A DNA stretch of 64,000 bases from Candidatus Thorarchaeota archaeon (GCA_004524445.1 SDNP01000002.1:32001-96000); one strand, 5' to 3'; positions 33,718 to 59,422 are shown, counted from the stretch's first letter. Program-made: numbers and translations. The notes: a model not told the origin generated them from the sequence alone.

Positions 33718-33818
33718 TGGTGCGGCCGCCGGGATTTGAAGTCCCGCAATTCGTGATGAATTGACTCGGGTTGGAAGCTTGGGAAGCTTCCGTCCTAACC
33801 AAACTAGACCACGGCCGC
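33718..33818 (-). tRNA. tRNA-Gly(CCC) with 24-nt intron at 53/54 (33741-33764)
   Basis: GCGGCCG acceptor, GAAGC/GCTTC anticodon stem, CCA; BHB-type CCCG/CGGG helix plus CAATTC/GAATTG. Confidence 0.9.
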
Positions 33819-33940
33819 CAAACGTGAAGTTTGTGGAATTGATAAAAGCGTATCGGCATTTTTTCTTTGGTTTATGCATTTGGCTCAAATCTGAACTTTT
33901 ATCTTCATCTGATAGTGTGCGGGTCGTGGGTATAATACGG

Positions 33941-37368: not shown

Positions 37369-37483
37369 TTATTTCCACCGTAATCTATTGTCTATGCAAG
37401 AATAAAAACAGCACAGGATGTAACGACAGGTTTAATTCTTTCAGTTCGACAGGAGATTACAGCATATTAGGAGAATAGAAAGC

Positions 37484-37849: not shown

Positions 37850-38001
37850 TTCTGATTACTTTCGCTCACCCCCCTTTCTGCCAGTGACCTGATTGTTCCT
37901 TCAAACTACTTGGTAGTTTTATTGGCAGTACCCCAAGGTAGCTGCTAGAGACTTTGAACTAGTGAAATCTAGTTAGGTAGAGAAGCAAAGACTTCTCTTG
38001 G

Positions 38002-39036: not shown

Positions 39037-39068
39037 ATAGGGTATTGGGACTTGCAGATTGATGGTGT

Positions 39069-40757: not shown

Positions 40758-40860
40758 GTGTGTGGTTTGTCCAACAAGATTCGCTTTAACTCTGGCTGTG
40801 AACCTCATTCTTTAGGTCCTTAAATACGCAAATCCGGAAATGAGAGAATAGGGTTATAAA

Positions 40861-41061
40861 ATGGTTTCATCCAAACTAATAGAAAATCAAAATGGTGGAC
40901 CTTTGGTTGAAGAGAGTCTCTTGTTAGGACTGGCGATTGTCACTATCTCTATTGTTATAGGTGTAATTCTTCAAGCCACAGGTTGGGCACAGGATGTAGT
41001 TAGTACTCTAATGGAAATGCTGGAGGAAAGTTGGAGCATCTTTGGTGAAGTTGTACCATAG
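40861..41061 (+). CDS. Flp-like pilin (class III signal peptide)
   Basis: NQNG|GPLVE (E at +5) followed by a hydrophobic helix; 66 aa; next to the ATPase. Confidence 0.7.
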   Translation: MVSSKLIENQNGGPLVEESLLLGLAIVTISIVIGVILQATGWAQDVVSTLMEMLEESWSIFGEVVP

Positions 41062-41144
41062 GAGGTAAGTGTTGGCCCTGGCCTTTGGGAAAGCCTTATT
41101 TGCTGAACATTTGGTGAAGACTCGCTTCGGACTGCGGTGACTCG

Positions 41145-41254
41145 GCTCCGGTAGATGCCTTCACATTTCGCGGTTGGCTAGCCGATTGTAGTCCGGCCCA
41201 GCATGAGGGACTCTCGATCCCTCGACCCGGGTTCAAATCCCGGCCGGAGCACCA
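41145..41254 (+). tRNA. tRNA-Glu(CTC) with 32-nt intron at 10/11 (41155-41186)
   Basis: GCTCCGG/CCGGAGC acceptor, AGGGA-CTCTCGA-TCCCT, TTCAAAT, CCA; BHB-like helix CGGU/GCCG. Confidence 0.88.
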
Positions 41255-41260
41255 TTTATT

Positions 41261-43240
41261 CTATCCAATAAGGTAGTGTTTCCTAGCAAAAGGAATGGCC
41301 AATATTAAACATGAGATAATCAGAGCAGAAGCAAGAGGTGTGACACCAATGCCGCTTGCAACGTTCGCATCGATTGGCGTTATGACGAGTGTGAATGACC
41401 CAACGGTGGAAGTAATCCCTGATTGCTCATTAATTTCATAGCTGAGATGGTACACCCCAGCTTCTAATGGAGTCACTAAACACAGATTTACAACACCATA
41501 CACAGATTTTGTGATTTGTTTCTCGGATGCTAACCACCAATATGCAAAATTGATGTCAATATTTCGAGTTCCATTTTGGGCAAATAGCAGAATTTCCACA
41601 TTTATGTATTTCATCATGCCTGATTGAGAATATGATTTCAGAAGAACAGTCAACGGTATAAGTTTGCTAATAGTAATCTTCGTTAAGAAGTTGCTCGGTA
41701 ATTCCATTCTTGACTCATTACCGGAATAGATGATTTTGACTAGGTACTTTCCTTCTTCTTTCGGTGCAGTAAATGATATTTGGCCTAATTGGAAGTTGGT
41801 AGTGAGCAACGTTTGATTTGCTGGTGCATCCAAGGGAGATATAATCAGACTTAGATTGCGTTGGATACTTTTTCCGTCAAAATTAGATATATTGACTAAA
41901 TAGACTACTTCTTGAAGTGGAGATGCATAGCCCATAGTATTGCTTTCTAACAATATGATATTCGGGCGAGACCAAACAGGAAGCAATGTAATCAACGAAT
42001 TGTTAAGGAGAAACTGATTGTCGGTTACATTCACAATGATTTCATGGATGCCCTTTGGTGGCATCATGAATAGATACCCAACAAATTTTCCACTACTAGG
42101 AATAAATATTGCATTGGCACTCTCTAATGTTGTTGTATCTTGCACACTAATATTGATGTCTCGGATGGTGCGGTTGAATATATCTCTAACTGAAATTCCA
42201 AAACTCAAGCTGGTATAAGTTTCAGCTATTGAAGCGTTAAAACTAGCCACAATATATGCTTGACCAAGAACGGATAACTGGACTGTTTTCGTGCATGGCT
42301 CATTCCGGATGCTTCCATTATAGCGAATCGTTAGTTGATGCATCCCTAAAGAAAAAGAGTCATCAATATCGATTTCAATTTCGCTCCAGCCAGTTTCATT
42401 TGTTAGTACTTGCATATACATGATTTCATCAATGAGAACTAGAATACACTCATTAGAGAGACCGCTGTCATTATCAGTTAGTAACACATCTGTTTTCCAA
42501 GTTGTATTGAGGTATGCATCTTCGTGAGCTGAAATATTGGCTGCAATTTCTGTGTCGATCTGACTCAAAATAATCTCTAATTCTTCCATTGCTTGGGAGT
42601 GATAATTTACACTGCTTCCTTCGTACCAGAAAATCAATGAGTTCTTACCAAGATATGCCCAACTACTATTTGTAATGATACTTGTGGACAGATATCCATC
42701 TGTATCTGATTGGAGTATACATAGGGTGTTACCATTAGCGATTACCGTTATATCTGCATTAGGAATCGCATTATTTGTGTCATCAGTCAAGTAGGCAGAA
42801 ATGAGAAGTTCGTCACCATATATCAAAGAAGTATTGGAGAGAGTTACCTCGAGGTTTGTAGATGAAACGATTAAGACCGGCATCCATTGGCAAGAGGGAT
42901 ATAGAGCAAGAGTTTCATTACCTCGATATGTGGCATTGAAAATAGTTTCTCCAAGAGGGTAGCCAAATGGTACATCCATGCAGAATGTAGCATATCCGCT
43001 TTTGTCTGTGTATTCGATTCCTAATAACCAGTCGTTGGTTTCGTCATGAAACTCCACTGGTTGGAATTCTACTGGATCACCGTAAGATCCGTTTTGTAGC
43101 ACCTGTGCTGTTAGTGTTAAATTCTGGCCCCGAGAAATGATAGGAACTTCTTCCGCCTCAACTGGAATCGGAGAAAAAATCATTAGAACTAATGCCGCGC
43201 CGATGAAGATCAAAGTGATGGTATTAGATCTATTCAACAC
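41261..43240 (-). CDS. Membrane-anchored Ig-like repeat surface protein
   Basis: Signal peptide, TDKSG/SDTDG/TNETG repeats with Y.G motifs, C-terminal TM helix plus RKH. Confidence 0.8.
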   Translation of the reverse strand: MLNRSNTITLIFIGAALVLMIFSPIPVEAEEVPIISRGQNLTLTAQVLQNGSYGDPVEFQPVEFHDETNDWLLGIEYTDKSGYATFCMDVPFGYPLGETIFNATYRGNETLALYPSCQWMPVLIVSSTNLEVTLSNTSLIYGDELLISAYLTDDTNNAIPNADITVIANGNTLCILQSDTDGYLSTSIITNSSWAYLGKNSLIFWYEGSSVNYHSQAMEELEIILSQIDTEIAANISAHEDAYLNTTWKTDVLLTDNDSGLSNECILVLIDEIMYMQVLTNETGWSEIEIDIDDSFSLGMHQLTIRYNGSIRNEPCTKTVQLSVLGQAYIVASFNASIAETYTSLSFGISVRDIFNRTIRDINISVQDTTTLESANAIFIPSSGKFVGYLFMMPPKGIHEIIVNVTDNQFLLNNSLITLLPVWSRPNIILLESNTMGYASPLQEVVYLVNISNFDGKSIQRNLSLIISPLDAPANQTLLTTNFQLGQISFTAPKEEGKYLVKIIYSGNESRMELPSNFLTKITISKLIPLTVLLKSYSQSGMMKYINVEILLFAQNGTRNIDINFAYWWLASEKQITKSVYGVVNLCLVTPLEAGVYHLSYEINEQSGITSTVGSFTLVITPIDANVASGIGVTPLASALIISCLILAIPFARKHYLIG

Positions 43241-43476
43241 AGTCTACCTCTTTCAATGCTCGTTTTCTGAACACGTCCTATGTCGGCATGATTCGCATTC
43301 GGACCTTATCTGTTCAGCTATTGATTCATAATTTCTTTATTTCAGGAGTTTTTAATCTCCTATAGAATGAGAGATACTCAGGCGTTTTCAGTGGTGGTTA
43401 TTATGGGACATCATTAACACATGTTAGACGTGAACACAATTTAGTCAGCCTTTAGCAGGACAAGAAGAGAGAGGAG

Positions 43477-46400
43477 TTGGTGAATGTGATTGATGGAATA
43501 AATGAACACTTGCTTCGAGTATCGATTCGGTATACTAGATTGTTATGGTTCCTATCGAGCTTTCTTGCTGGCGTCTATCTTCTTTTGACTTATCTACTGC
43601 CAACCACAAATTTTGGTGCAACATTTCTAATACCAGCCAGGTATTTCATTGAGGTTTTTATTTTCTTGACACCTGTTGTGGGAGCCATTATAACAGCATC
43701 TAGACATTTCGTGAGTCTTACACCCGCCATCTTGATGACTGATGAGTTTCTTTGGTATGAGGTGGGTGATAGTCTTATCGGTGTTTCTTGCCTAGATATA
43801 TCAAATACGCATAGCTCGGTGGTGAATGGAGAGAATGGAACCACTGTCTATGATTCATCCTTCCTTCGAGCTTTAAGATCTGGATTGCAGAAAAATACTA
43901 GTCTTGCATTCGAAGCGGGAATAAATCAGAATGGGCCCTGTCTTCGCTTTTTTATAAGTACTTACTCGAAAAGTAGAGAAGATGCAAAGAGTGTTTTGAT
44001 GAGAGAAAGAATGAAACTGGAGGCTATTCTTCTGTCATCGATAAAGAACATCGAGTTTCATCCTCTTAGTGGCTCTGACCTAAGAGAAGCAATTGGAGTT
44101 TCTATCTTTCACGAAGGGAGTTTTTCTTCAGTTTTTGATTCGAAAACGAATCTCCTTGTCATTAAAGGCAATCCAAAGGTAGAAGCAACAGATACCTCTT
44201 CGCAAATTGGGGTTTTCTTATCCACTGCCATGAAGAAGAGGATATCGACGCGAATCACAACCGTTCTCTCAGTTGCGGATGGTAACTCAGAGAGAAAAAA
44301 AATGGAGCGATCTTGGGACAGGATAATGGAAAAGGAGAAGCGCAAGGAAGCAAGCTTGGAAGACTGGGCAACAAAAAAGAAACTTCTTAGTCGCTATCAC
44401 GAAACTGAGAACAAGAATGGATGGTTTGATTGTTCTACTTATGTCTTAGTAAAATCTGACAATGAGAATGAAGTCGTACCTAATACTGAGAGTGTATCGG
44501 GTATGATTCAGTCAATTTGGGGTGGAGATAACACATTTTCCATCAAACAAAAGAGGTTGAGTAGAAGGATTGAATCTCGTTTGATAACTAGGAGAGCTAT
44601 TGCCAACACACGACTACATGCAAATAGAGTTGCTGCCTATGTAAATACTCCAGTTCAATCGTTGCCCATGATGTCTAAGCATACAGCACCAACCTTCAAC
44701 ATTCCTTCCGTACAGGAGATTGATAATGAATTGACTCTTGGACACGCGATATATCAAGACAAGGAAGTCAGTTCAGTTGGTTTGAGTGCACAGATGTTGA
44801 GAGAGCATTTGGCGGTCCTTGGTGCAACTGGGACAGGAAAAACAACACTGGTTAAACGTCTAATAGCAGAACTAAGCATGAGAACAGATGTGCCTTGGTG
44901 GATTTTCGATGTTAAAGGAAATGAATATTCTGAATTCCAGAAGCTTGGTAATGTGATGGTTATAAGGCCAGGTCTCGATCCTACATTTTCAATTCCATTA
45001 GTGGACTCTTCCCATTCTTCCGAGTCTGTGCAGGGGCAGTCAACTTTTACCTTGCTAAGAGAACTCATCAGGGAGGAGGGATCTTCGGACTTGTCTCCAG
45101 CAATGGAGCAGTTGCTCTTCAAGGCAGTTAGTCGACTAGCCCATAGCAAAGGGGAAGGAATGGGTGCGGATTGTCTTGTTGATTTGGTCAAAAAAATGTC
45201 TGATGACAATAGAGTGGGGAAAATGATTAGAGATGCTCTATTGAATCGCTTAGAAATATTAACCAGAGAACCCCTTGGTGCTATTCTCTCAGGAGGAGAA
45301 AATCAAGTCAACATTACGGATCTTATGAAAAGAAGGGTTGTATTTGACCTGCGCTATGTTGCCAGGATTGGAGGAATGGACGCAGCGCGTTTGCTTTACA
45401 ATCTAGTAGCAAAGAGAATATTTGAGGCAGCAATGCACAGAGGCATATCTCCGAATTTGAATCACGTAGTTGTTTTGGAGGAGGCGAGCAATCTTGTTCC
45501 AGAGAGTTACACGAGATCTTCTGCGGCAGATATCTCAACAGGGGAGTCGATGGTCATGCTGCAAAGAGCTACAGGACAAGGTGTGATTGTTGTTTCAACT
45601 AGGCCGAATATATCCACTAACATCCTTGCCAATACTGCCACCAAAGTCGCGTTTAGATTACCATATGATAGTGAGGTGGGAGGCAGATTTTTATCAATCG
45701 ATCAAAATCAAGAACGATATCTGCGTATTCTCAAACGAGGTAGAGCTCTGATATCACTACCCGGACTTGAAGCTTTTGAAATGAGTTCAGATGTTTTTCG
45801 TTGGAGCGATTACTCGGATTTTATGTCGGAAAATAAATTGATTGGAAAGGATGAAACTAGTGTGATGTCAAGAGAGGGGATGGATATCGAGTCACAGATG
45901 GATACATCAGGTGCATCTGTTACCGGTTCTACAGAAGGTTCTTCTTCTAAGAACTTCAATCGGGCATCACAAATTAACAGTCAATTGGTTGCATTTATGG
46001 CATCAGAGAAGTTCGTCGTTGAAAGAGAAATTAGAGAATTCATTAGCATACTAAGCCCACAATCAACAGACTGTGAAATTGACGAGATGATATTTAGTTT
46101 GATTTCATTGGGCACTATTGTTAGGGAGGCAATTCCATTTGTCGATGGCGGTTTTGTGTATACATTGCCTGGAAAAGGTGAGCAAGCGGTATCAGAGGTT
46201 ATTTCGACGTATCTTTCAGATAGGTTAGGCTTAGAAAAGGAAGCAGTCCAAACAGACGATTTTGAGCTCATCATCGATGATATTGCTATTATAATCATTG
46301 GAGAACACATACGAGTTTCATCATTGAATGATACAGAAAATTACATCCGTTTGAAAATGGAGAAATTTGGAAATGGTGTAGAGAAGCTATATGTTATTGT

Positions 46401-47208
46401 AAGAGGAAGTGTGGCTGCCGCTAAACTTCGGGAGAAATTGGCTCAGACTGAGGAGTTTGATTCTGTCAGCGTTTTGTCAGCCTTCCCGAGTTCGCTGGAT
46501 CGAATGATTGCAGAAATTGGGGGAGAACGTTATTCTGTGTATGATGATGCTACTGAGAAGAATGCATCAGCTAAGGAAGAAGAAGTTGAATTGATCGAGG
46601 CGGTACATAAAAGGTGTAATACAGCTACCAGAGCAATTCAGATTCGAATTTGGATAGGACTGATTCAGGACTTTATTGATATTTCAAATGGTAAGTCAAC
46701 TTGGAGGTCGGTTTTGGAGTTTATTGAAACCACTGTATTGCAATCCAAACGAGCACGAACAGTGCCCTTGGATTCAGATGAAGGACGTCGAGCAGTTACT
46801 GAATTATTGGCAGATGAGGTTCTCACTGCTGTTAGAGTTGCAGAAAATGTGGACTTTCCTGGAATGGGGTCAGGACTGTGGATTGTAAATTCCAATGTTT
46901 TGATGAAACTGAAGGATTGGGTCTTGGAGCAATTAGTAACTTGTTTGAAAAGAGAAGGACATGAAATTTATAGAAATCATGAATACTACGATTTGTGTGC
47001 TAGCGACGCATCCTATGTGGTATTTCCAAATCAGCAGCAATTGAGTACCCTGTTGCATCTCCAATCTGAGGTGATATGTAGAAAATGTAAGTCCAAAAAA
47101 GTTGTATGCATATTGAGTGCTTCTGAATATATCGATGAGCGAGAAGATGCATCGGAGAACATAATTTTCAGATATCTGGACAGCCAGCAGATTAACCTTC
47201 TTCCTTAA
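43477..47208 (+). CDS. Membrane-anchored VirB4/HerA-like ATPase with long C-terminal extension
   Basis: Two N-terminal TM helices, GATGTGKTT, FDVKGNEY, LEEASN, STRP. Confidence 0.8.
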   Translation: MVNVIDGINEHLLRVSIRYTRLLWFLSSFLAGVYLLLTYLLPTTNFGATFLIPARYFIEVFIFLTPVVGAIITASRHFVSLTPAILMTDEFLWYEVGDSLIGVSCLDISNTHSSVVNGENGTTVYDSSFLRALRSGLQKNTSLAFEAGINQNGPCLRFFISTYSKSREDAKSVLMRERMKLEAILLSSIKNIEFHPLSGSDLREAIGVSIFHEGSFSSVFDSKTNLLVIKGNPKVEATDTSSQIGVFLSTAMKKRISTRITTVLSVADGNSERKKMERSWDRIMEKEKRKEASLEDWATKKKLLSRYHETENKNGWFDCSTYVLVKSDNENEVVPNTESVSGMIQSIWGGDNTFSIKQKRLSRRIESRLITRRAIANTRLHANRVAAYVNTPVQSLPMMSKHTAPTFNIPSVQEIDNELTLGHAIYQDKEVSSVGLSAQMLREHLAVLGATGTGKTTLVKRLIAELSMRTDVPWWIFDVKGNEYSEFQKLGNVMVIRPGLDPTFSIPLVDSSHSSESVQGQSTFTLLRELIREEGSSDLSPAMEQLLFKAVSRLAHSKGEGMGADCLVDLVKKMSDDNRVGKMIRDALLNRLEILTREPLGAILSGGENQVNITDLMKRRVVFDLRYVARIGGMDAARLLYNLVAKRIFEAAMHRGISPNLNHVVVLEEASNLVPESYTRSSAADISTGESMVMLQRATGQGVIVVSTRPNISTNILANTATKVAFRLPYDSEVGGRFLSIDQNQERYLRILKRGRALISLPGLEAFEMSSDVFRWSDYSDFMSENKLIGKDETSVMSREGMDIESQMDTSGASVTGSTEGSSSKNFNRASQINSQLVAFMASEKFVVEREIREFISILSPQSTDCEIDEMIFSLISLGTIVREAIPFVDGGFVYTLPGKGEQAVSEVISTYLSDRLGLEKEAVQTDDFELIIDDIAIIIIGEHIRVSSLNDTENYIRLKMEKFGNGVEKLYVIVRGSVAAAKLREKLAQTEEFDSVSVLSAFPSSLDRMIAEIGGERYSVYDDATEKNASAKEEEVELIEAVHKRCNTATRAIQIRIWIGLIQDFIDISNGKSTWRSVLEFIETTVLQSKRARTVPLDSDEGRRAVTELLADEVLTAVRVAENVDFPGMGSGLWIVNSNVLMKLKDWVLEQLVTCLKREGHEIYRNHEYYDLCASDASYVVFPNQQQLSTLLHLQSEVICRKCKSKKVVCILSASEYIDEREDASENIIFRYLDSQQINLLP

Positions 47209-48008
47209 GTTACAATACGAGTTCCTATTGTGGGCTCTCCTAGGAGTATTCTTCTAAGACGTCCAGGAGCATTAAGATTGAAGATTATGATTTCGGTATT
47301 ATCATCTGCTAGAGTAAATAGTTCTTTCAGCTTTCTTTTCATCCCGCCTGTGACATCAATAGATTTTGAAGGGCCTGTGACGTTCAGAACAGGATTATCC
47401 TCTGATGCCTTTATTGTGGGAATGAGTTTAGCATCGGGGTTCCTGTTAGGATTATCATCTAGAACCCCATCAACATCCGTACCTAGAAGAACTGATTTGG
47501 CACCTAATTCTCTTGCAAGATGCACTGAAAGAGCATCACCGCTCAAAATTGCTGCACCTAGTTCGGCATCGAAACAAACATCTCCATGAGTTATGACTGT
47601 GATGCCAGCTTTGAGAGCACTTCTAAAAGATGAGAGATATATTGTTTCAATATAGCCATTACGAAGCTTTGTTATTGCGATTGGTGGAATTATAATGCAG
47701 GGAACTTGGTGTTCAGATAACGCTGCCTGAATTGCTGATGCTAAGAGATTCATGCTATAACGGATTTCAGGGATGCCATCCAGACGCTTTTTCCGTGGGG
47801 TTGAAAGATTTGCAAAGCCGTATTTTTTTGCGGGTTGGTGCCCATGAGCTCCCCCACCAAGTACCAATATGAGGGGGGTATCAGATATTAACAGTTCCTC
47901 ACAAATACGAATGATTGACTTACGATTTATTTCGGGAGGGGAACGTTCTTTGTGAGTGATGACTGACCCTCCGAGTTTGAGTATCACTAGGTTGTCCAAA
48001 GGCGTCAC
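47205..48008 (-). CDS. Isopentenyl phosphate kinase
   Basis: KLGGSVIT, HGD, SGD, DVTGGM. Confidence 0.9.
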   Translation of the reverse strand: MTPLDNLVILKLGGSVITHKERSPPEINRKSIIRICEELLISDTPLILVLGGGAHGHQPAKKYGFANLSTPRKKRLDGIPEIRYSMNLLASAIQAALSEHQVPCIIIPPIAITKLRNGYIETIYLSSFRSALKAGITVITHGDVCFDAELGAAILSGDALSVHLARELGAKSVLLGTDVDGVLDDNPNRNPDAKLIPTIKASEDNPVLNVTGPSKSIDVTGGMKRKLKELFTLADDNTEIIIFNLNAPGRLRRILLGEPTIGTRIVT

Positions 48009-48145
48009 ATCTCAATTTGGTTCAAGATTACTTATCATCGTTTTGACTGGTCATCGGAATTAGTACACTCATACATAAGACAACCTTTTTATCCGAACCC
48101 TTTTTGGTTGGGTTTAACATCTCTGTAGATGGAGTGGTATCGTAT

Positions 48146-48457
48146 ATGACTCAGAGAGCAAGAATTCGTTTGTCAAGTACAAGTACAGAACATCTTGATG
48201 GCGTTTGTAATCAGATCAAGCGAATTACACGCAAAACAGGTGTTCGTATGTCAGGACCTATACCACTTCCAACTAGAAGAATGGTTGTTCCGACACGAAA
48301 GACACCTTGTGGTCAGGGATCTCATTCGTGGGATAAGTGGGAGATGCGAATACACAAGCGGCTAATTGATATTGATGCTGATGAAAGAGCAATTCGTCAG
48401 ATTATGCGGGTCAGAATTCCTGAATCTGTGTATATTGAGATTGAACTAACCGGTTGA
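48146..48457 (+). CDS. rps10: 30S ribosomal protein uS10
   Basis: [24 protein letters not shown]. Confidence 0.97.
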
Positions 48458-48541
48458 TACTGAAGTGTTAGTACACAAACTCTTTCTATGAAGAACACAA
48501 TGTAGAATCACTAGTGTGAAATCCATCCGGAGGAGTCACAG

Positions 48542-50365
48542 ATGTGTGGAATTATAGGTGCAATACAGAAAAAGGGTGAAGTGGCACCATTCATTCATCA
48601 AGCTCTGAAGAGACTGGAGTACAGAGGCTATGATTCTGTAGGCGTAACTACAATTGCAGACAATGAGCTTTATATGAAAAAGGACAAAGGAAAAATAGAC
48701 CAGGTTCATAAGAAACTTGACTTGGATGATTTGCCCGGATCGACCGGTATAGGTCATACTAGGTGGGCTACTCATGGTATTCCCTCTATGTTAAACTCTC
48801 ATCCTCATTTTGATTGTTCTAATGAGATTGCTGTTGTTCATAACGGGGTAATAGACAATTTCATGGAGCTGAGGCGAGAATTGAAGAAGAAGGGGCATCA
48901 ATTCGAGTCTGAAACTGATACTGAAGTCATCCCACATATGATTGAGGATTACATGAAAAACGGATATAGTCTAGAAGAGGCAGTGAAAGAGGTTGCCCTG
49001 ATTATTGAGGGAACATACGCTGTCGTGGCTATGTGTACAAAGGAGCCTGGAAAGATAGTCGTGACACGAGATGGCAATCCATTAGTGATTGGAAAGAAAG
49101 AGAATGCAGTCTACGTTTCATCGGATATTCCTGCTTTCCTCCCAATGACAGACAATATGGTACTACTACTCGATGGCGAGATAGCTGTGTTAACTGTAGA
49201 TGATATTGAAATTGAGAAACTGAGCGATGGAGAGAGGGTTGATAGGGATGCCATCAAAATCAGTTGGACCGCAGACCAAGCACAGAAGAGCGGTTATCCA
49301 CATTTTATGCTAAAGGAGATTCATGAGCAACCAGATGCTATTAGAAATACGTTGAGACTGCGAGATGAAGAAATCGAAAAGGCTGCGAAGATGATTGATA
49401 ATGCGGAGAGGGTTTTCCTGTTGGCTATGGGAACCTCTGGGCATGCAGCCCTCGCTGGCAGGCATATGTTTGCATCTCTTGGTGGTGTTCTGGCAACTTC
49501 TGAACTTGCAAGTGACTTTGCTGATACGGTTTATGATACTATTACCAAGAGTGATCTTGTTGTTGCGATAACACAATCTGGTGAAACAACCGATACTATC
49601 ACTGCCGTTAAATCTGCAAGACAACAGGGTGCAAAAGTCCTTGCAATCACAAATGTCGTGGGTAGCTCCATAACCCGTATAGCTGATCATACTTTGATAA
49701 CTCAGGCAGGCCCCGAGATAGGTGTAGCCGCCACCAAGACCTTCATGGTGCAACTCACTTCTCTTGCTCAGATAGCACTGAAGTTGGGTGAGATTTCTGG
49801 GAAACCTGGCACTGATGAATTAGAAAAGAAAAGGGAATCATTACATGGTCTTCCTGATATTGTTTCACGTGTGATAGCAACGGAGGAGGAACATGCTCGC
49901 CAGATTGCAGGATTGTTTTATGATAGCCCAAGTATGTTATTCCTTGGCAGAGGTATTTCGATGGCCACTGCTTTCGAGGGGGCCTTGAAGCTGAAAGAGA
50001 TTGCATACAATCATGCAGAAGGATATTCGGCGGGAGAGTCAAAGCATGGGCCTATCGCACTCGTACAAGATGGTTTTCCCGTATTTTTTGTTGCGCCCCG
50101 TGATGACACACGCTCTAGGATAATAGGCAATATTATGGAAATGAAGGCTCGTGGAGCTTCCATTATATCTGTGATTGAAGAGGGTGATGATGAGTTGTTG
50201 GAATTATCTGATCATTCATTTGCTATTCCGAAGGGCGTGGAGCCCGAATTCACAACTATGGCCTATGTAGTGCCCTTGCAGCTGGTTAGTTACTACATGG
50301 CGACCAGAAAAGGGTATGACCCTGATAAGCCCAGAAATTTGGCAAAGTCTGTTACAGTTCTTTGA
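48542..50365 (+). CDS. glmS: Glutamine-fructose-6-phosphate aminotransferase
   Basis: MCGI, HTRWATHG, PRNLAKSVTV. Confidence 0.97.
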   Translation: MCGIIGAIQKKGEVAPFIHQALKRLEYRGYDSVGVTTIADNELYMKKDKGKIDQVHKKLDLDDLPGSTGIGHTRWATHGIPSMLNSHPHFDCSNEIAVVHNGVIDNFMELRRELKKKGHQFESETDTEVIPHMIEDYMKNGYSLEEAVKEVALIIEGTYAVVAMCTKEPGKIVVTRDGNPLVIGKKENAVYVSSDIPAFLPMTDNMVLLLDGEIAVLTVDDIEIEKLSDGERVDRDAIKISWTADQAQKSGYPHFMLKEIHEQPDAIRNTLRLRDEEIEKAAKMIDNAERVFLLAMGTSGHAALAGRHMFASLGGVLATSELASDFADTVYDTITKSDLVVAITQSGETTDTITAVKSARQQGAKVLAITNVVGSSITRIADHTLITQAGPEIGVAATKTFMVQLTSLAQIALKLGEISGKPGTDELEKKRESLHGLPDIVSRVIATEEEHARQIAGLFYDSPSMLFLGRGISMATAFEGALKLKEIAYNHAEGYSAGESKHGPIALVQDGFPVFFVAPRDDTRSRIIGNIMEMKARGASIISVIEEGDDELLELSDHSFAIPKGVEPEFTTMAYVVPLQLVSYYMATRKGYDPDKPRNLAKSVTVL

Positions 50366-50398
50366 GGGGCTTATATTGCGAAATATGGTATACTTTAT

Positions 50399-50659
50399 GT
50401 GTGGATAATGAATTGTTGGACCCTCTTAACACCATTAACAGAGTTCGCTTCATTGATTGCTACATATTTTGCGGAAATATGGCAATTTCTAGTATTCATC
50501 GCAAGAGTGTCAGCAGTGATTGTGGTTTTGTCAGGGGCGATTCTTTGGTTCACTGATGTTAATTCGAAGAGGGGCAAAAGTCTTGTATTCAGTGGTATTC
50601 TATTGGCAATAGTTGTGCAATACTTTGTTTTCTATCCCCCAACTTTTGCTCTTGGGTAA
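50399..50659 (+). CDS. Small two-TM protein, VirB2/TrbC pilin-like
   Basis: Two hydrophobic helices joined by SKRGK; start uncertain. Confidence 0.5.
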   Translation: MWIMNCWTLLTPLTEFASLIATYFAEIWQFLVFIARVSAVIVVLSGAILWFTDVNSKRGKSLVFSGILLAIVVQYFVFYPPTFALG

Positions 50660-50679
50660 CTAGTTCCCACCGTATATTT

Positions 50680-51903
50680 CTATATCAGCTGAGAAGTAAT
50701 TAGATTTAGCTGTTTTGAAAGCTTGTGAATGTCGGATATGGTATTATAGCCATGGAGAGAAACCTGAACCACGCCAGTATTGGAATATTTTTTGACTAAA
50801 AGTGATGTGCACAATAGGCCTGATCTTACAGCTATGTTGCTTTGATTCAGGAAAAGCGCAATGTCATGGCAGCTCACACCGCTATCTTCACCAATGTTGA
50901 AAATCACTGATACGTTTTCATCAGTTGGATTCCCATATAGGTTAAGTGATGGGATTTCATTTAGAGACTCTACTAGGTACTGGGACAGATTTTTCATGTG
51001 TTTTCGAAGACCTTTGTTTCGAAGACCTTCAGTATAATTGATTGCTTCATTAATGGCAGCAATATTTGACAATGGCAAGATGCCCGATTCAAATCTATCT
51101 GGAGGTAGAGCTGTTTCAAATGAGGATTCTTCAACAATCGAAACGGAGTTGGCTCCAAGAATTCCAGGCTTGATTCCACTCGCCATTTCTTTTGAAGTCC
51201 ATTGAATTGTAGTTTCTGGTGGTGCCATCAGGCCTCTATTGCTTGAGAAGAATGCGACATCAGCAAGAGAAGGAAAAGATATGTCTTCGGAGAATGCAAT
51301 TTCTCTACTTGCTTCTGTAAGAAAGAGAGCGTCCGACTCATGTGTGATCTTAGATATAGACTTCAGGGGGTTGCGTCTGTCGGTTCCAGGCACCCATTCA
51401 GATACGGCTACGATTCCTGTTCTATTGTTTGTGATTCTGTCAAGTTCCTGGATATCTAGAACTCCGTTCTCATCCGTCTGGATGATGTGCACGTCAATAT
51501 TTAGAATCTCAGCTACTCGTCTTAAGGGAATCATAACCGAATTGTGTTCTGCCTCTGATACAATTATCGAGTCCTTTTTTCCTGATTCCCAATTATAACC
51601 TAGGGCTACTGACGTGATTGCTGATGGTAGACTTCCGTGAAATGATATTTGGTTGTTATTACTACCAAGCATAGAGGCCAGTTGTTTCCTAGCGTCTTCA
51701 GCTATCTGTCCACCCTTAGCTGCAAGCTGGTATGCGCCTCTTCTGGACGAAACAGTGATTTTGCGCAAAAATTCTGACGATGCAGTGATAACAGTTTCGG
51801 GAACCAGTGTTGTACTGGAAGAGTCAAGATATACCAATTCTGGATTAGCTTGGAATATCGGAAAGTCTTCTCGTATATCTAGTTCGGGCATAATCTTATT
51901 CAT
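50680..51903 (-). CDS. SufS-like class V aminotransferase homologue, divergent
   Basis: IREDFP, YLDSS, EHNS, RFESG, VRSGLLC. Confidence 0.8.
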   Translation of the reverse strand: MNKIMPELDIREDFPIFQANPELVYLDSSSTTLVPETVITASSEFLRKITVSSRRGAYQLAAKGGQIAEDARKQLASMLGSNNNQISFHGSLPSAITSVALGYNWESGKKDSIIVSEAEHNSVMIPLRRVAEILNIDVHIIQTDENGVLDIQELDRITNNRTGIVAVSEWVPGTDRRNPLKSISKITHESDALFLTEASREIAFSEDISFPSLADVAFFSSNRGLMAPPETTIQWTSKEMASGIKPGILGANSVSIVEESSFETALPPDRFESGILPLSNIAAINEAINYTEGLRNKGLRKHMKNLSQYLVESLNEIPSLNLYGNPTDENVSVIFNIGEDSGVSCHDIALFLNQSNIAVRSGLLCTSLLVKKYSNTGVVQVSLHGYNTISDIHKLSKQLNLITSQLI

Positions 51904-51950
51904 TACCGGGCTGTCTTAACTCTGATGATTTAGCTTGGAGTTAGAGATGA

Positions 51951-52961
51951 ATGCATGGGAATATAATTGAAGGTGACTTTCTCGAGGTGCATAATGGAGA
52001 TATATTTGAAGTAAGAGGCTTAGTTCATCCTTCTGACGGGTACACTGCTTATGCGAGATATGTGAGAAGCACATATGGAGATAGGGTGTCAGTAGATGGG
52101 CGTACCTATAGGAAGTTATCGACACTACAGGAAAAAATGAGTTATGCCCAAAGGAGGACTCCATCCTACCTGCATTTTGACCCCCGCAAAGATAGAGTTG
52201 TTCAGGTTGTTCCAAAGAAGGATATTGTGCACATTCTAAGTCCGGCTGAACGTCTGAGAGAAATTAGTGAATGCAGTACGGTATCAGATTTAGAAAAAGA
52301 TGTGATTGATTTTTCAGCTAAATTGTCTACAAAAACGGGAATAAGCTTTGATAATATGGGGGTCATAGGATCGCCATTAGCTGGCCTAGCGCACTCGTCT
52401 TCCGATATTGATCTTATTATCTATGGTTATAAGACCGGGAGGAGGTTCTATACAAAAATGCGTGAGATTCTTTCTAATGAGGATGATGAATTAGAGAGGT
52501 ATTCAGGAAAAGGATTAGCTGAGCATACGCAATCTCGATGGGGAGAAAGGAGTAGTATGCCTGACCTTGAGAGGATTGAAGGAACAAAAGTCCTGCAGGG
52601 ACGATTTCGCTCTAGAGATTTTTTTATCCGTTTAGTTCCGAACAAATCGGAAGTTGGACATACATATGAAGATTATATCACAAAGTCATCAGGGCTTGTA
52701 TATAGAACTTGTAATATTGTTGACGATTACAAGGCAATCTTCACGCCCTGTGAATATTCTGTTGCCTGTGAAGAGGATCCGTTTTTGACCAAAATAGTAG
52801 GGTACCAGAGTAGATTTGCTGAATGCGCAAGTGAAGGAATGAGGGTGAAAGTATTTGGAAAGTTGGAATCTGTGATAAGTCAATTTTCTGGATTTCATAA
52901 ACAAATTGTCTTGGGAGGATATTCTCTGAACTCTTTCCTGCCAATTCGAGAGATGGACTAG
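51951..52961 (+). CDS. Pol-beta-family nucleotidyltransferase (COG1665-like)
   Basis: VRGLVHP, GVIGS..SDIDLIIYG. Confidence 0.8.
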   Translation: MHGNIIEGDFLEVHNGDIFEVRGLVHPSDGYTAYARYVRSTYGDRVSVDGRTYRKLSTLQEKMSYAQRRTPSYLHFDPRKDRVVQVVPKKDIVHILSPAERLREISECSTVSDLEKDVIDFSAKLSTKTGISFDNMGVIGSPLAGLAHSSSDIDLIIYGYKTGRRFYTKMREILSNEDDELERYSGKGLAEHTQSRWGERSSMPDLERIEGTKVLQGRFRSRDFFIRLVPNKSEVGHTYEDYITKSSGLVYRTCNIVDDYKAIFTPCEYSVACEEDPFLTKIVGYQSRFAECASEGMRVKVFGKLESVISQFSGFHKQIVLGGYSLNSFLPIREMD

Positions 52962-53019
52962 TTGGATACGGCCATCTTTCAATCATTCACTTTATCAACA
53001 CGGTTTCACAGTCACTATC

Positions 53020-53417
53020 TGTGAATGGCGCCATTTTTGTGAATATAATATGGCATAAGAACCCCATTTGTCTTTTTTTCATAATAGCAGCCCTCATAAC
53101 TCCGTTCATACATGTGAATAAAGACACCCCTTCGTTTCCACTGGAGATTAGTAATTAGAGATATGAATAACACTAGACCGTATTCACAAGGGTAATAACC
53201 ATGTGAATAGCACTTAAATTGGAGAAATATCCTTAAAACACCAAATAAGAGTTATGAGCGCTTTATATTTTTAAATAATATCAAAGAGGGGCAAAAATCT
53301 TCTAAATAATAGTTTAGAAGCTAATAAAGCTGTATCAGGTAATATCTTGACCTTATGTGTATATAGTGGATTCACATACTCACACTTATTTGGATTCTAA
53401 CGCTTCCAAATGTGAAT
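53020..53417. repeat. Seven TGTGAAT/ATTCACA heptamers
   Basis: Exact copies at 53020, 53038, 53113, 53182(rc), 53202, 53370(rc), 53411. Confidence 0.85.
53127..53146 (-). promoter_or_regulatory. Origin recognition box (ORB)
   Basis: CTCCAGTGGAAACGAAGGGG on minus strand, matching the canonical ORB with G-string. Confidence 0.8.
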
Positions 53418-53465
53418 CGGGTGCGCAGTACCCTTGGGTTTGAGTACCGATCATGGTGAATCACA

Positions 53466-54092
53466 GTGAGCGAAGAAATTCGAACAAATTACATCTACGA
53501 GTTCACCTATGGATCCGGACCAGGGATGAAAGAAATTTTTCGGTGCAAATATGTTTCGCCAGATGAAGCTCTAAAGCGTTTCAAAAAGATAGTATCAGTT
53601 ACAGAATCTCCCTTTGATTTCAAGATAGTAATATCTTCAGAAACTACTGGAGAAGAGTCTAGCTTTCAGGTCAAAGGCGATATCGATGAGATGATTCAAA
53701 AATTCAAAGTATTTCTAGAAACAAGCACGGGATATAGCTTTCCCGAAACCAAAATCGATGCATCATCGACAAGTTCGCCTGAGCTGGATTTCGAAGCTAT
53801 GAGCAATTATGAGAAGATGCAGGTTGTAATCTATGCATCATTTAAGCATGGGAAATTCTCTTCTCTTGATGTAGCTGAAATTTATGAAAGCACTTTCAAT
53901 GAGTCACTTCCAAAGAGTACAGCATCCACTTATCTTGCTAGGATGTGGGATGAGGGAGAAGGGCATCTGGAGAGATATGGAAATCGCTCGGGCTATACAT
54001 ATCGACTGAAGACCGAATTGAAAGAAACTCAAAGGGAAGTGGAGAGGTCTGAAGAAATTCTTTCAATGATTCACTTGCAAGTAGGCAAATAG
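53466..54092 (+). CDS. Protein with C-terminal winged helix-turn-helix
   Basis: FSSLDVAEIY..STASTYLARM..LERYGNRSGYTYRL. Confidence 0.75.
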   Translation: MSEEIRTNYIYEFTYGSGPGMKEIFRCKYVSPDEALKRFKKIVSVTESPFDFKIVISSETTGEESSFQVKGDIDEMIQKFKVFLETSTGYSFPETKIDASSTSSPELDFEAMSNYEKMQVVIYASFKHGKFSSLDVAEIYESTFNESLPKSTASTYLARMWDEGEGHLERYGNRSGYTYRLKTELKETQREVERSEEILSMIHLQVGK

Positions 54093-55453: not shown

Positions 55454-56761
55454 TCACCTGTTGAGGTATTTGTTTAGATACGTGTATTGTTCAGTGAGAG
55501 AGCCTCGGTAGACAATTATTGCGTCTTTTAGCTCTCTGCAGAGATCAAGTTTGTTGAATTCGACAGTAAAATCTGTTTCTGCCAAAGGCGGAATAAAATC
55601 CAATAGGGTTTCACTGAATGAGGTTGATGACTCTATCGGCAATTCACATGGCAGGTTATCAACCGCCATGATTACAGGCCCCTCTGTTGTGATACTCGGG
55701 TCTGCTGTTTTTGTTTCTATATTGTACGTGAAGGCAGGTTCATCGGGCTTGGTGCATTTGACAGTGAATTCAATGGCACCTTCAATGTCACATGAGATGT
55801 CGCCAAGTACAATGAGCTTATGTTTTGTCTTCGACCAGTAATTCTCAATGAAGTCCTTGGTTAACAAGCGGGGGTATTTCGGAGACCAATAGATGCAGTT
55901 CATCAACACGGTAAGGTATTTCGCATGTTCATGAAATATTCCATGATATTTGTCGAGTCCATGAGCGTAGTAATCTTGAAGATCGAAATCTCCCCCATCA
56001 TTAGAGACCACCATGTCTTTCTCCTTGAAAACACATTTGTACAATATGTCGAATCTTTCCGGCAGAGATGGCAAATCCTCTGGTGATACTACCTCATGGG
56101 GCAAGATATCAAAAATCCTCTGAGCTCCTTGTGATACATTACCGTAGCCTGCAAATCCGACAATGAAAGGAGCAATCTCTTTGGGAAGACCTTTTTCTTG
56201 AATTCGTTTCGCTATTTTTCTGAATTCCGTTTCTATACCTGAAACTCCATCAGACTCCAATGTAGGTTTCAATCCGTGAAATGGATTAGGATGAATGTCT
56301 TCCATCTTGAGTCGTTTGCCAAGTACCCTGAATGTATCTGAAATGCCAGCCATTCCAGCCCAATTTCCGAAGTATACTAGTCTCCTACCCTCATCGTTCA
56401 CTATAAGTTCATAATCAAGAAGAGTTGCACCTTCATCAAGTAATCTCGCAAGCATGGGCATATTATGACTCTGACCTTTGATTGTATGACTGAAGAAAAG
56501 GTGTACCTTGTTAGGTTGAAAGAAATTTTCTGGCATCTCTTTTATACCAAGTATTATTTTCGGTTCCTCACCATCTAAGGGCCCTATCTCCGCTCCGGCT
56601 TCGAGATACATCTGTTCATCGAACACCCTCAGATTACTAGGTTCAACTATGAAGTCAATGCCGTGATTTTGGTGTAGCTGTTTTGCATGACCGGGTATAA
56701 GAGGTGCCCGAGCCTCAAAGGCCTTTTCTTCTTTTCTGATCCCAATTTTGTTCACAAACAA
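55454..56761 (-). CDS. Lysine-ketoglutarate reductase (LKR type)
   Basis: EARAPL, FFSHTIKGQ, DYE, GYGNVSQGA, DISCD, VDNLP. Confidence 0.88.
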   Translation of the reverse strand: MFVNKIGIRKEEKAFEARAPLIPGHAKQLHQNHGIDFIVEPSNLRVFDEQMYLEAGAEIGPLDGEEPKIILGIKEMPENFFQPNKVHLFFSHTIKGQSHNMPMLARLLDEGATLLDYELIVNDEGRRLVYFGNWAGMAGISDTFRVLGKRLKMEDIHPNPFHGLKPTLESDGVSGIETEFRKIAKRIQEKGLPKEIAPFIVGFAGYGNVSQGAQRIFDILPHEVVSPEDLPSLPERFDILYKCVFKEKDMVVSNDGGDFDLQDYYAHGLDKYHGIFHEHAKYLTVLMNCIYWSPKYPRLLTKDFIENYWSKTKHKLIVLGDISCDIEGAIEFTVKCTKPDEPAFTYNIETKTADPSITTEGPVIMAVDNLPCELPIESSTSFSETLLDFIPPLAETDFTVEFNKLDLCRELKDAIIVYRGSLTEQYTYLNKYLNR

Positions 56762-56892
56762 GCCTCCTGAATAGAAGTTTTCCTCGGTCCGAACGGGTGA
56801 GCGACCCTACTTGTCCTTTAAGCTTTCCATCGAGGAGTCATATTACAAACTAAGAAATTGAGAACATGTGTTCTAGTTTCTAGTGAAAGTTC

Positions 56893-57183
56893 TTGGCATA
56901 TTTGTACATCTATGATTGTGTTGCGGCCAGAGAGAGCAACGCCAGAAGAGTGTCCTTCACAAAGGAGCTCTACGGATTCACCTATTCCTGGAAGACCAAA
57001 TCAGGTATGAAGACGAAAAGAAAGATTGGACTCATTGAGGAGTGTATGGGAGCTGAGCCAGTCACAGACTCTGCCATTCTAGTCCCCGATAGCTGCAAGG
57101 ATCAATTTGACGAACTCTTTGTATATTATCGGGATATACTAAAAATCAAAATCTTCAAAGTGGAGTCAGAAGTATATTTGTAA
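56893..57183 (+). CDS. Small Cas2/VapD-like ferredoxin-fold protein, no CRISPR context
   Basis: YLYIYD..RR..F.KELYG..DSAILVP pattern. Confidence 0.55.
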   Translation: MAYLYIYDCVAARESNARRVSFTKELYGFTYSWKTKSGMKTKRKIGLIEECMGAEPVTDSAILVPDSCKDQFDELFVYYRDILKIKIFKVESEVYL

Positions 57184-57211
57184 TACAAATAATACATTTT
57201 TGTAGGAACAA

Positions 57212-57441
57212 TAGAACACGTGTTCTAAATCTAACCAGACCCCATTATTTCCAGTGGAAGACAATATAAATTACAAAGAAGATAATTAGTAAAGTATAAA
57301 TAGTAGTATATGTACCCCGATATTATCTCCATTTCTATATATATCATACAACGGGTTCCTGGATCCTCATCCATTTCTATACTTCCAGTGGAAACGAGGG
57401 GGTATATTAGCCAGCGAATATTAACTAGAACACGTGTTCTA
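57212..57441. other. Candidate replication origin (oriC)
   Basis: Inverted ORBs at 57240-57260(-) and 57382-57402(+) flank an AT-rich ~120-bp core. Confidence 0.8.
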
Positions 57442-57526
57442 AGTACTATTCCAGTACCACAACACTGATAGACGATATGAGTGTCGCTGAAATTGTTGGC
57501 ATGATATGCCTTTGGAGAATTAGGTC

Positions 57527-59422
57527 ATGACAAAACCGAAGGACTTGTTGGAAGATAATCCTGGTAAGAGTATTCTATTATTGGCAAACGAAGCCATTGC
57601 AAGGGGAACTCTTGAGGCTGGAGTTAGACTAGTCGCATTGTATCCTGGGACGCCCAGTAGTGAAATTGGAAATAATCTCACCTTCATGGCGCCACATATC
57701 CCGAACTTCTACTTTGAATTCAGCACGAACGAAAAGGTGGCTATGGAGGTTGCTGGTTCTGCTGCAGTAGCCGGGGTTCGCTCAATGATGGTCTGCAAGG
57801 GACCGGGTCTCAATGTAGCAGCAGACCCGTTTTTCTCCTTGGCCTATGTTGGTGTCCGAGGGGGAATGGTTATCGTTGTTGCAGACGACCCCAGTATGTG
57901 GAGTTCACAGAATGAAAATGACAGTCGGTATTATGCACTGATGGGTAATATGCCCATGATGGAACCCTCAGATCCTGCAGAGGCAAAATCAATGCTTCTT
58001 GAAGCCTACAAATTTTCAGAGAGTCTAGAGCTTCCGGTATTATTTAGGACCACAACTCGTGTAAATCATACTCGTGCCCCTGTAGTATTGGGGCCCATTG
58101 AGGATCGGCCAGATAAAGTGGAATTCGAAAAAGAACCAACTCGATTTGTTCCAGTTCCCTCTGTTGCACGACAACGTCATCCCTGGTTGTTGAAACAAAT
58201 AGACGCCGCAAGAGAATTGTCGGAACAAAGCGAACTGAATTTCGCCGTCGGCGAGGGTGACCTCGGAATCATTACTAGCGGGGTCTCGTACAATTATGTA
58301 ATGGAATCACTTACCCGACTAAATACTAAAGCAGAAATTCTCAAACTTGGCATTACTCATCCTGTACCCGAACGGAAGATCATCGAGTTTCTGAAGCGCC
58401 ATGAGAGCGTTGCTGTGGTGGAAGAGTTAGAACCCTTCATCGAGACTCATGCTCGTCGACTGTCTAATCTACATGACCTATCCAATGTTGAAATTCTAGG
58501 AAAGGAACAAGGATACTTCCCAAGAGTGTATGAATACACTCCCAAAATAGTTACCGAAGGACTAGCAAAAATACTAGACAAAGAATTACCCGTAGATTGG
58601 AAGCATTTAGATACACTCAGCGAAGAGATTCCTGATCTCCCTCCGCGACCACCTCTGTTGTGTGCCGGCTGTCCGCACCGAGCGTCATATTTTGCTATCA
58701 GAACCGCCACTCGCGGAAAAGCAATCTATCCATCTGACATAGGATGCTATACACTTAGCATTGCACCACCATTAGAAACCGCCGACATATTGTTTGACAT
58801 GGGGTCTTCTATCAGCACAGCATGTGGATTATCTCAAGTGACTGGACAAGAAGTTGTTGCGAGTATTGGAGATAGTACTTTCTTTGCTTCAGGTCTGCCT
58901 GGCATCGTCAATGCCGTATATAATGGCCATCCGATTAGCCTAGTAGTCCTTGATAACCGAACGACAGCCATGACTGGTCATCAACCACACCCGGGGACAG
59001 GAGTCACCGGTATGCAGGAGAAGGTTGAACCACTAGACATTGAAGGAGTCTGCAAGGGACTGGGTGTCAAATACACCAAAACAGTGGACCCCTTTGAGCC
59101 ACTTGCCGATCTTGTGGCTGAAGTACGTAAAATGGTTGAATGGGTCAGGGAGAATAAGGCACCGGCTGTCCTAGTATCCAAAGCACCATGTGCTTTACTC
59201 ACGGCTGCAGAACGACGTCGAACCCAAGAGCAACCAGAGCCATACTTTGTGGATTCGGAGATGTGTACAGGATGCAAACGATGTCTCAACAGATTTGCCT
59301 GTCCTGCTATGTATTGGGACTCAGAAACAGAGAAGGCTGCCATTGATGAAACACTCTGTAATCTATGTGGGAGTTGTGTATCTGTCTGTCCTCAAGGGGC
59401 CATAGTACAGAAGGAGGAATGA
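57527..59422 (+). CDS. iorA: Indolepyruvate:ferredoxin oxidoreductase alpha
   Basis: YPGTPSSE, NEKVA, CAGCPHR, DIGCY, TAMTG, two 4Fe-4S motifs. Confidence 0.95.
   Translation: MTKPKDLLEDNPGKSILLLANEAIARGTLEAGVRLVALYPGTPSSEIGNNLTFMAPHIPNFYFEFSTNEKVAMEVAGSAAVAGVRSMMVCKGPGLNVAADPFFSLAYVGVRGGMVIVVADDPSMWSSQNENDSRYYALMGNMPMMEPSDPAEAKSMLLEAYKFSESLELPVLFRTTTRVNHTRAPVVLGPIEDRPDKVEFEKEPTRFVPVPSVARQRHPWLLKQIDAARELSEQSELNFAVGEGDLGIITSGVSYNYVMESLTRLNTKAEILKLGITHPVPERKIIEFLKRHESVAVVEELEPFIETHARRLSNLHDLSNVEILGKEQGYFPRVYEYTPKIVTEGLAKILDKELPVDWKHLDTLSEEIPDLPPRPPLLCAGCPHRASYFAIRTATRGKAIYPSDIGCYTLSIAPPLETADILFDMGSSISTACGLSQVTGQEVVASIGDSTFFASGLPGIVNAVYNGHPISLVVLDNRTTAMTGHQPHPGTGVTGMQEKVEPLDIEGVCKGLGVKYTKTVDPFEPLADLVAEVRKMVEWVRENKAPAVLVSKAPCALLTAAERRRTQEQPEPYFVDSEMCTGCKRCLNRFACPAMYWDSETEKAAIDETLCNLCGSCVSVCPQGAIVQKEE

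Follow-up and report, generated by a model that had tools for sequence, protein, structure and literature searches.

Positions 57212-57441 of the analysed DNA most probably constitute the core of an active origin of chromosome replication that belongs to the classical oriC1 type of archaea. The window, i.e., the whole stretch of 64,000 nucleotides that was analysed, corresponds to G000:C33:32001-96000, in which G000 is a Thorarchaeota assembly of 2.79 Mb in 64 contigs. The locus unites the features of an oriC1-type origin, namely an inverted ORB pair, an AT-rich DUE, outward-facing G-strings, an Orc1-1-type gene in the same genome, and a switch in strand composition. An earlier note on this DNA had proposed an Orc1/Cdc6-type origin with inverted ORBs around a DUE, and this proposal is supported by the architecture of the locus, its conservation within the family, the skew switch, and corresponding loci in other Asgard families. 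Judged from sequence, three features appear to be derived or additional: an initiator gene that is not linked to the origin, palindromes tied to the gene encoding a 96-aa protein (p96), and a core that is invertible in evolution. A literature search found no publication on ORB-type origins in Asgard archaea, and none defining an Asgard replication origin. The locus offers a testable Asgard origin: its sequence is precisely defined and conserved, and its candidate initiator can be named as Cdc6-1 rather than Cdc6-2, which is encoded nearby.

Direct reading of window positions 56700-58000 found the inter-ORB and flanking elements, i.e., both palindromes, ORB(-), ORB(+), the two TCCATTTCTATA copies, and the AT-rich core, all where the earlier reading had placed them, and far above chance. 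The elements of the core are as follows.

57212-57227, no strand assigned: left bracket palindrome TAGAACACGTGTTCTA, 16 nt, perfect, read directly and conserved in the family
57240-57260, minus strand: ORB-A CTTCCACTGGAAATAATGGGG, dyad core and a G-string that faces outward from the DUE
57261-57381, no strand assigned: AT-rich DUE, the 121-bp spacer between the ORBs, defined by A+T content and stability
57291-57303, plus strand: DUE motif m1 AAAGTATAAATAG, TATA-like, conserved in an alignment of 17 family cores
57323-57334, plus strand: DUE motif m2 TTATCTCCATTT, overlapping the first TCCATTTCTATA copy and conserved in the same alignment
57328 and 57370: the two TCCATTTCTATA copies
57368-57381: second CTCCAT-type copy, abutting ORB-B
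57382-57402, plus strand: ORB-B CTTCCAGTGGAAACGAGGGGG, dyad core and G-string, inverted relative to ORB-A, with the G-string outward
57426-57441, no strand assigned: right bracket palindrome TAGAACACGTGTTCTA, 16 nt, perfect, read directly and conserved in the family

The ORB core TTCCASTGGAAA with at most one mismatch has seven strand matches in the window compared to 1.07 expected, and the palindrome AGAACAYGTGTTCT with at most two mismatches has six compared to 1.0 expected; none of 100 shuffles reached seven or six, respectively. The strict full ORB pattern (core, 3-8 nt, GGGG) has exactly two matches in the entire 2.79-Mb assembly, namely ORB-A and ORB-B. The inter-ORB DNA is 72% A+T compared to 58% for the window, and it contains both the most AT-rich 80-bp interval and the least stable 100-bp interval of the 64 kb (dG -107.7; mean -131.9, sd 5.4; 4.5 sd off). 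The TCCATTTCTATA repeats are the local form of the conserved DUE motifs. An Rfam search of the intergenic region at E up to 1 gave no structured-RNA match.

Beyond the earlier reading, we found a third palindrome copy, a third ORB, and a second Orc1/Cdc6 gene located 7 kb before the window start. The first two of these, together with two genes that accompany the ORB pair, are located as follows.

53127-53147, minus strand: ORB-C CTCCAGTGGAAACGAAGGGGT, third full ORB, 4.1 kb from the ORB pair and upstream of p208
53466-54092, plus strand: p208, encoding a two-domain protein with a C-terminal winged helix-turn-helix (alignment, model, and synteny)
56861-56876, no strand assigned: third palindrome copy AGAACATGTGTTCTAG, 17 bp before the p96 start codon
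56893-57183, plus strand: p96, encoding the 96-aa origin-linked protein (alignment, AlphaFold2 model, and synteny)

The earlier note had considered the direction of the G-strings, which face away from the AT-rich core, to be opposite to that in haloarchaea. This anomaly disappears on comparison with Haloarcula hispanica oriC1, described as having CCCCCC on the top strand at the left ORB (site I) and GGGGGGGG at the right ORB (site II), i.e., the same outward layout (PMC3936714). According to the same report, the G-string of an ORB is contacted by the AAA+ domain, and both G-strings are essential in the minimal oriC1 of H. hispanica (PMC3936714); in a published structural model, the opposite polarity of DUE-flanking ORBs turns the winged-helix and lid sides toward one another, with the DUE between them (PMC6742236). 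The H. hispanica layout and the structural model identify outward G-strings as the canonical arrangement, and they are outward in the window pair and in every family and outgroup ORB pair.

The earlier note had also proposed synteny and conservation of the ORB pair as a check, and both the pair and the gene order are kept in 17 Thorarchaeota genomes representing more than 12 genera, with ORB pairs found in outgroups as well. In 41 related genomes, the full ORB pattern occurs 45 times among the matches listed, compared to once for the reversed control. The conserved order begins with an aminotransferase gene, p336, ORB-C, p208, two saccharopine-dehydrogenase genes, a palindrome, and p96, and continues from p96 through a palindrome, the ORB(s), and another palindrome to iorA, iorB, and hypF; in the window, the two saccharopine-dehydrogenase genes and p208 are located upstream, p96 and iorA/iorB flank the ORB pair, and hypF lies downstream. 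The spacing is conserved too: across the family, the left palindrome stands at a fixed 34 bp from ORB(-), a palindrome follows ORB(+) at 35 or 45 bp, and ORB-C is located about 4.2 kb from the pair, and the start-to-start distance of about 134 bp between ORB(-) and ORB(+) is kept in 13 family genomes. Motifs m1 and m2 are conserved in 17 family cores, in which a further CTCCAT abuts ORB(+).

Several outgroup families have (-)/(+) ORB pairs 185-210 bp apart and a third ORB 1.4-1.5 kb off. In six other Asgard families (f2, f3, f7, f16, f19, and f21), a Cdc6-1 orthologue (49-61% identity) is encoded within about 3 kb of the ORB pair, with p208 and p96 between the two. Since cdc6-1 stands beside the module in these six families, the adjacency is ancestral and the Thorarchaeota layout is derived. 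A compact example is found in a closed 1.42-Mb genome of the same phylum (G026:C1:622363-625541), where p96, ORB(-) and ORB(+) 211 bp apart, p208, and the Cdc6-1 orthologue all lie within 3.2 kb.

The genome encodes two Orc1/Cdc6 proteins, both on contig C33.

G000:C33:24946-26196, outside the window, 7 kb before its start: cdc6-1, Orc1-1-type, 63 kb from the ORBs
Window 32305-33531, minus strand: cdc6-2, second Orc1/Cdc6 paralog (Pfam match), 24 kb from the ORBs

An initiator gene beside the origin is usual but not obligatory, and this adjacency fails in G000, where cdc6-1 is 63 kb away. What the earlier note had regarded as an anomaly, a cdc6 gene remote from the ORBs, is correct with respect to the 24-kb gap, but the gene in question is the second paralog (Orc1-2/1fnn-like), and the Orc1-1-type gene is located elsewhere. 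The best solved relative of Cdc6-2 is Pyrobaculum Cdc6 (1fnn, 202 bits), with Sulfolobus Orc1-1 at 171 bits. Cdc6-1 scores 353 bits with Sulfolobus Orc1-1 (2qby_A) and 340 bits with Aeropyrum ORC1 (2v1u_A), which are the two proteins crystallised on ORB DNA. By these similarities, Cdc6-2 is probably not the cognate initiator of the origin. A Cdc6-1 orthologue was found in 39 of the 41 relatives. Of the relatives that carry cdc6-1 and the origin on a single contig, six have them 58-64 kb apart and a seventh 69 kb apart; in three more, the gap is 125-156 kb. In the closed Thorarchaeota chromosome CP070658.1 (2.58 Mb), the ORB pair is located at about 1,807.5 kb, with cdc6-1 about 1.02 Mb and a cdc6-2-type gene 25 kb away from it, and only three strict ORBs are present, two of them at the origin locus. 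Origin finding restricted to orc1/cdc6 neighbourhoods misses the Thorarchaeota origin.

The absence of an ORB upstream of cdc6, likewise recorded in the earlier note as unusual, pertains to the paralog within the window: just upstream of the Orc1-1-type gene, outside the window, there are two ORB-like boxes with degenerate G-strings, TTCCAGTGGAAATAATGGTGG and TTTCCAGTGGAGC (G000:C33:24859-24920). The boxes may serve in autoregulation or mark a second origin, and given their presence, the main origin may also be a different one. The cumulative GC-skew minimum of C33, at 24,591, lies near them.

The core is asymmetric owing to m1 and m2, and its orientation can therefore be read. With respect to p96 and iorA, the core faces either way, even inside one genus, and m1 and m2 move together with it. 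In genus g5, G005, G155, G020, and G148 have one orientation, and G190, G166, G117, G202, G122, G132, and G196 have the other. When G155 is compared with G202, about 210 bp align only as reverse complements and the block ends at the palindromes, from which it follows that the cassette has been flipped repeatedly, with breaks at or near the palindromes. As far as can be ascertained from the literature search, both the occurrence of a palindrome-bracketed core in either orientation, even within a single genus, and the palindrome's tracking of the origin-linked p96 across families appear to be new.

The two orientations bear on the possibility that the ORBs are transcriptional operators only, through which Orc1/Cdc6 proteins would regulate p96 and iorAB, with replication starting elsewhere, e.g., beside cdc6-1. 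Such a role has precedents, as Sulfolobus Orc1-2 acts at damage-response promoters. Orc1-2-type proteins are described as known regulators (PMC12490963), the ORB-like boxes just upstream of cdc6-1 look autoregulatory, ORB-C lies in the promoter region of p208, and the ORB pair itself is placed between two genes. However, an inverted ORB pair that keeps a 134-bp spacing and encloses the region's least stable DNA is more than an operator requires, and this reading does not account for the strongest strand-composition switch of the assembly, which is located at the locus. Moreover, the cassette persists intact whichever way it faces p96 and iorA, which a symmetric bidirectional origin would tolerate and promoter-tied operators would not. 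We consider a purely transcriptional role of the ORBs improbable.

A skew extremum, on which the earlier note had let its reading stand or fall, is sharply present near the ORB pair. Along C33, the cumulative keto excess climbs without reversal, reaches its maximum at 89,946 (window 57,946), 0.5 kb from the ORB pair, and then declines. A switch score, calculated along the assembly contigs as the 30-kb left minus right keto skew, reaches 2226 at C33:90,000, the highest value in the assembly (next 1358, sd 536); the skew of G000 is patchy, with several weaker switches at other places. Misassembly as the source of the switch is ruled out because C33 is collinear over 138 kb with the same-genus contig G001:C4, which has the same skew pattern. 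The switch is not an artefact of gene orientation either, since the coding-strand keto skew is only +0.01 and the bias is carried by the third codon positions of genes on both strands.

In bacteria, the maximum of the cumulative skew marks the terminus. Read in the same way, the locus, at which the cumulative GC and keto skews are both maximal, would be a boundary at which forks converge, or a dormant or minor origin; dormant origins are described in haloarchaea (PMC4595724), and three family genomes have the opposite skew sign. The closed relative G060 (3.58 Mb, family f19) argues against this reading. It carries the cdc6-1 – p208 – p96 – ORB module at 1.639 Mb, and in sampled 20-kb windows its GC skew is positive in 10 of the 11 before the module, negative in all nine after it, and positive again around the antipode. 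G060 thus has the sign seen in C33 at an ORB origin of the canonical kind, next to cdc6, and switches back near the antipode; a canonical ORB origin therefore sits at the skew maximum in this phylum. A maximum at an ORB origin is also consistent with a survey that describes the leading strands of archaea as deficient in G at third codon positions and at non-coding positions (bioRxiv 10.1101/2023.11.15.567178). Furthermore, genes in the left arm of C33 are mostly directed away from the locus. Taken with these observations, a dormant origin or convergence boundary is very unlikely, and an active origin at the skew maximum is the reading that we prefer. In the closed Odinarchaeum chromosome, the origin is described as having been taken at the cumulative GC-skew minimum (PMC9246712); methods based on this minimum may choose the wrong extremum in this phylum. 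Should the closed 1.42-Mb genome G026 be that chromosome, the published origin was set at a skew minimum away from its p96 and ORB module.

The sign of the skew varies among genera. In the 21 family genomes sampled, the locus coincides with a maximum in 12, a minimum in three (G009:C2, G023:C9, and G019:C2), and no switch in six; the pattern of G009 is clean over 590 kb. Rearrangement as the cause of the difference is ruled out, since collinearity between G009 and G000 extends for about 130 kb around the locus and their keto bias is nonetheless opposite; the bias is of the AT type in G009 (minimum) and of the GC type in G000 and G001 (maximum). Cassette orientation does not predict the sign: the first 10 informative genomes fitted this idea (three flipped with a minimum, seven unflipped with a maximum), but among ten more, including within-genus contrasts, the flipped genomes G202, G117, G006, and G015 have a maximum. 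A clear skew pattern was not found in 20 sampled windows of the closed 1.4-Mb relative G026.

An origin that belongs to an integrated plasmid or virus and not to the chromosome, as a conjugation- or pilus-like cluster of deviating composition at window 34-51 kb and the frequent presence of an orc1 gene and ORBs on mobile elements might suggest, is hardly credible, because the module lies inside a housekeeping synteny block (saccharopine dehydrogenases, iorAB, and hypF) kept in more than 12 genera, p96 is single copy, the initiator linked to the module in outgroups is the universal Orc1-1 orthologue (39/41 relatives), and neither absence of the block from close relatives nor flanking att sites were seen.

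As a separate observation, window positions 33000-53000 have a strongly positive GC skew and lower G+C, and the orthologous stretch in G009 is only partial. The genes of this segment encode a TFIIB-like protein, a T2SSE/VirB11-type ATPase, Ig-like surface proteins, and a 1243-aa HerA/FtsK-like ATPase, and its composition suggests an acquired element.

The p96 protein is encoded by a single-copy gene and shows a mean column identity of 67% in the alignment. Its AlphaFold2 model (mean pLDDT 92.9) has a ferredoxin-like fold with an inserted Lys-rich hairpin, a predicted beta-alpha-beta-beta-alpha-beta topology, and an invariant Asp ending strand 1. No Pfam match at E up to 1 (18 homologues) and no PDB sequence match were obtained. 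In a sample of 201 genomes from the phylum, 66 have p96, including nearly all f1 genomes as well as genomes of f2, f3, f7, f16, f19, and f21; f12 gave marginal matches only (E about 1e-4 to 1e-3), and p96 was not found in f5 (0/21) or f9 (0/40). Its named relatives are nearly all from MAGs of Candidatus Thorarchaeota archaeon.

The predicted topology and the invariant Asp are like those of the small ferredoxin-fold nucleases Cas2 and VapD. Cas2 proteins are among the best natural structural matches of p96 (5h1o_A, Z 7.8, rmsd 2.4 A over 73 residues; 3exc at 19% identity), although p96 differs from them in the inserted Lys-rich hairpin. The Z scores for Cas2 and VapD chains (6.5-7.8) are level with those for many unrelated ferredoxin-like folds, and we therefore did not classify p96 as Cas2. 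The Pfam and PDB sequence searches gave no Cas2 match, and the neighbourhood of p96 in all family genomes comprises saccharopine dehydrogenases, iorAB, and hypF, with no cas1 or CRISPR. No Cas family was matched by any of the 20 window ORFs scanned, which included all ORFs of at least 140 aa up to about 6 kb from p96. The p208 protein (208 aa) has a PadR/MarR/Sso10a-like winged helix followed by a C-terminal helix, with a generic family match only.

The palindrome follows p96. A copy is located upstream of p96 in nearly all family genomes; in the window, the copy at 56861 has a TATA-like stretch on one side and the start of p96 on the other, i.e., it is in operator position. Across families, the palindrome GAACAYGTGTTC accompanies p96: 43 f1 genomes mostly contain 4-17 sites per strand (1-3 in four genomes), compared to 0-2 for the control in all but one, and f7, f16, and f19 have few sites, located beside p96, with only two in G060 (3.6 Mb), both flanking p96. 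In families without p96, the palindrome count equals background. With at most one mismatch, G000 has 15 sites compared to 5.8 expected, of which 12 are located outside long ORFs and three of these at the origin.

The origin may operate in the following way. Monomers of the Orc1-1-type initiator Cdc6-1 would bind ORB-A and ORB-B with opposite polarity, placing their AAA+ domains on the outward G-strings and their winged-helix sides toward the 121-bp AT-rich spacer, at which two MCM helicases would be loaded and the spacer would melt. ORB-C upstream of p208 would be the counterpart of the third, promoter-proximal ORB of other Asgard families. The ancestral order was presumably cdc6-1 – p208 – p96 – ORB/DUE/ORB within about 3 kb, as it survives in six other Asgard families; in Thorarchaeota, the initiator gene would have been relocated and two saccharopine-dehydrogenase genes inserted, which would leave the origin seemingly without its initiator gene and with the other paralog as its closest cdc6.

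The bracketing palindromes are likely sites for a sequence-specific dimeric protein tied to p96, for which the candidates are p96 itself and the winged helix-turn-helix protein p208. Occupation of the palindrome would at least control p96 expression and may also modulate the origin. Together, p96, p208, and the palindrome constitute a candidate accessory layer of initiation control. A stronger version, which we put forward only tentatively and do not favour, is that the palindrome-bracketed ORB-DUE-ORB segment is a self-contained origin cassette with a dedicated factor: p96, or p208 acting on p96, would bind the TTAGAACAYGTGTTCTAA sites 34 bp from ORB-A and gate Orc1 access or firing, and the palindromes would be the break points of the flips. 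If this were true, the cassette and its factor would be an Asgard-specific accessory layer of initiation control, with a role like that of UBP/ucm or of bacterial SeqA, IHF, and Fis.

Among known systems, oriC1 of Sulfolobus/Saccharolobus is described as comprising ORB1 and an ORB3-DUE-ORB2 arrangement, the initiator Orc1-1, and a ucm motif bound by UBP, a saddle-shaped dimer of 111 aa (PMC12141716). The Thorarchaeota locus resembles it in the two inverted ORBs of the same consensus (TCCAGTGGAAA and G-string) that flank an AT-rich DUE, in a third ORB further off, in an initiator with 353 bits of similarity to Orc1-1, and in short conserved motifs within the DUE, the likeness of m1 and m2 to ucm being drawn from their location. 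In contrast to the Sulfolobus origin, 63 kb separate the initiator gene from the origin (about 1 Mb in the closed chromosome), two metabolic genes intervene between the pair and the third ORB, which stands 4.1 kb away, and the core is bracketed by perfect 16-nt palindromes at fixed spacing. UBP is not among the structural matches listed for p96, whose fold is ferredoxin-like.

Haloarchaeal oriC1, as described for Haloarcula hispanica and Haloferax volcanii, has inverted ORBs with G-strings at the outer ends, both ORBs being essential, and an extra ORB-associated inverted repeat that modulates activity (PMC3936714, PMC1868953). The Thorarchaeota locus shares the inverted ORBs, the outer G-strings, and an extra inverted repeat associated with the ORBs. 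However, the haloarchaeal extra repeat is G-rich and located inside the ORB pair, whereas the Thorarchaeota palindromes are located outside it; the Thorarchaeota ORBs lack the halophile-specific extended G-string, and the haloarchaeal initiator gene adjoins the origin.

Several minor observations concern the surroundings of the origin module and the palindromes elsewhere in the genome. In one genus (G004:C17:144800-164799), the segment that runs from the aminotransferase gene to the saccharopine-dehydrogenase genes and includes ORB-C points the other way with respect to p96 and the ORB pair, a further rearrangement that breaks at the origin module. Further intergenic TTAGAACAYGTGTTCTAA copies in G000 are located at C4:8807, C9:81319, C24:128088, C30:65430, C33:31158, C38:33921, C40:26972, and C56:8302. 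The ORFs beside the other palindromes, judged by eye from the first 45 residues of their N-termini, resemble SurE, a PolX-type polymerase, GlyA, S3Ae, a ferritin-like protein, and an HTH regulator; with no replication theme among these N-termini, a palindrome regulon of replication genes was rejected, and the other TTAGAACAYGTGTTCTAA sites appear to represent a small regulon of some factor in Thorarchaeota. Finally, the region upstream of p208 (52986-53466) contains, besides ORB-C, about seven TGTGAAT/ATTCACA repeats, and the second least stable 100-bp interval of the 64 kb (start 53264, dG -110.8) adjoins ORB-C; this region could be an operator field of p208 or a second unwinding site.
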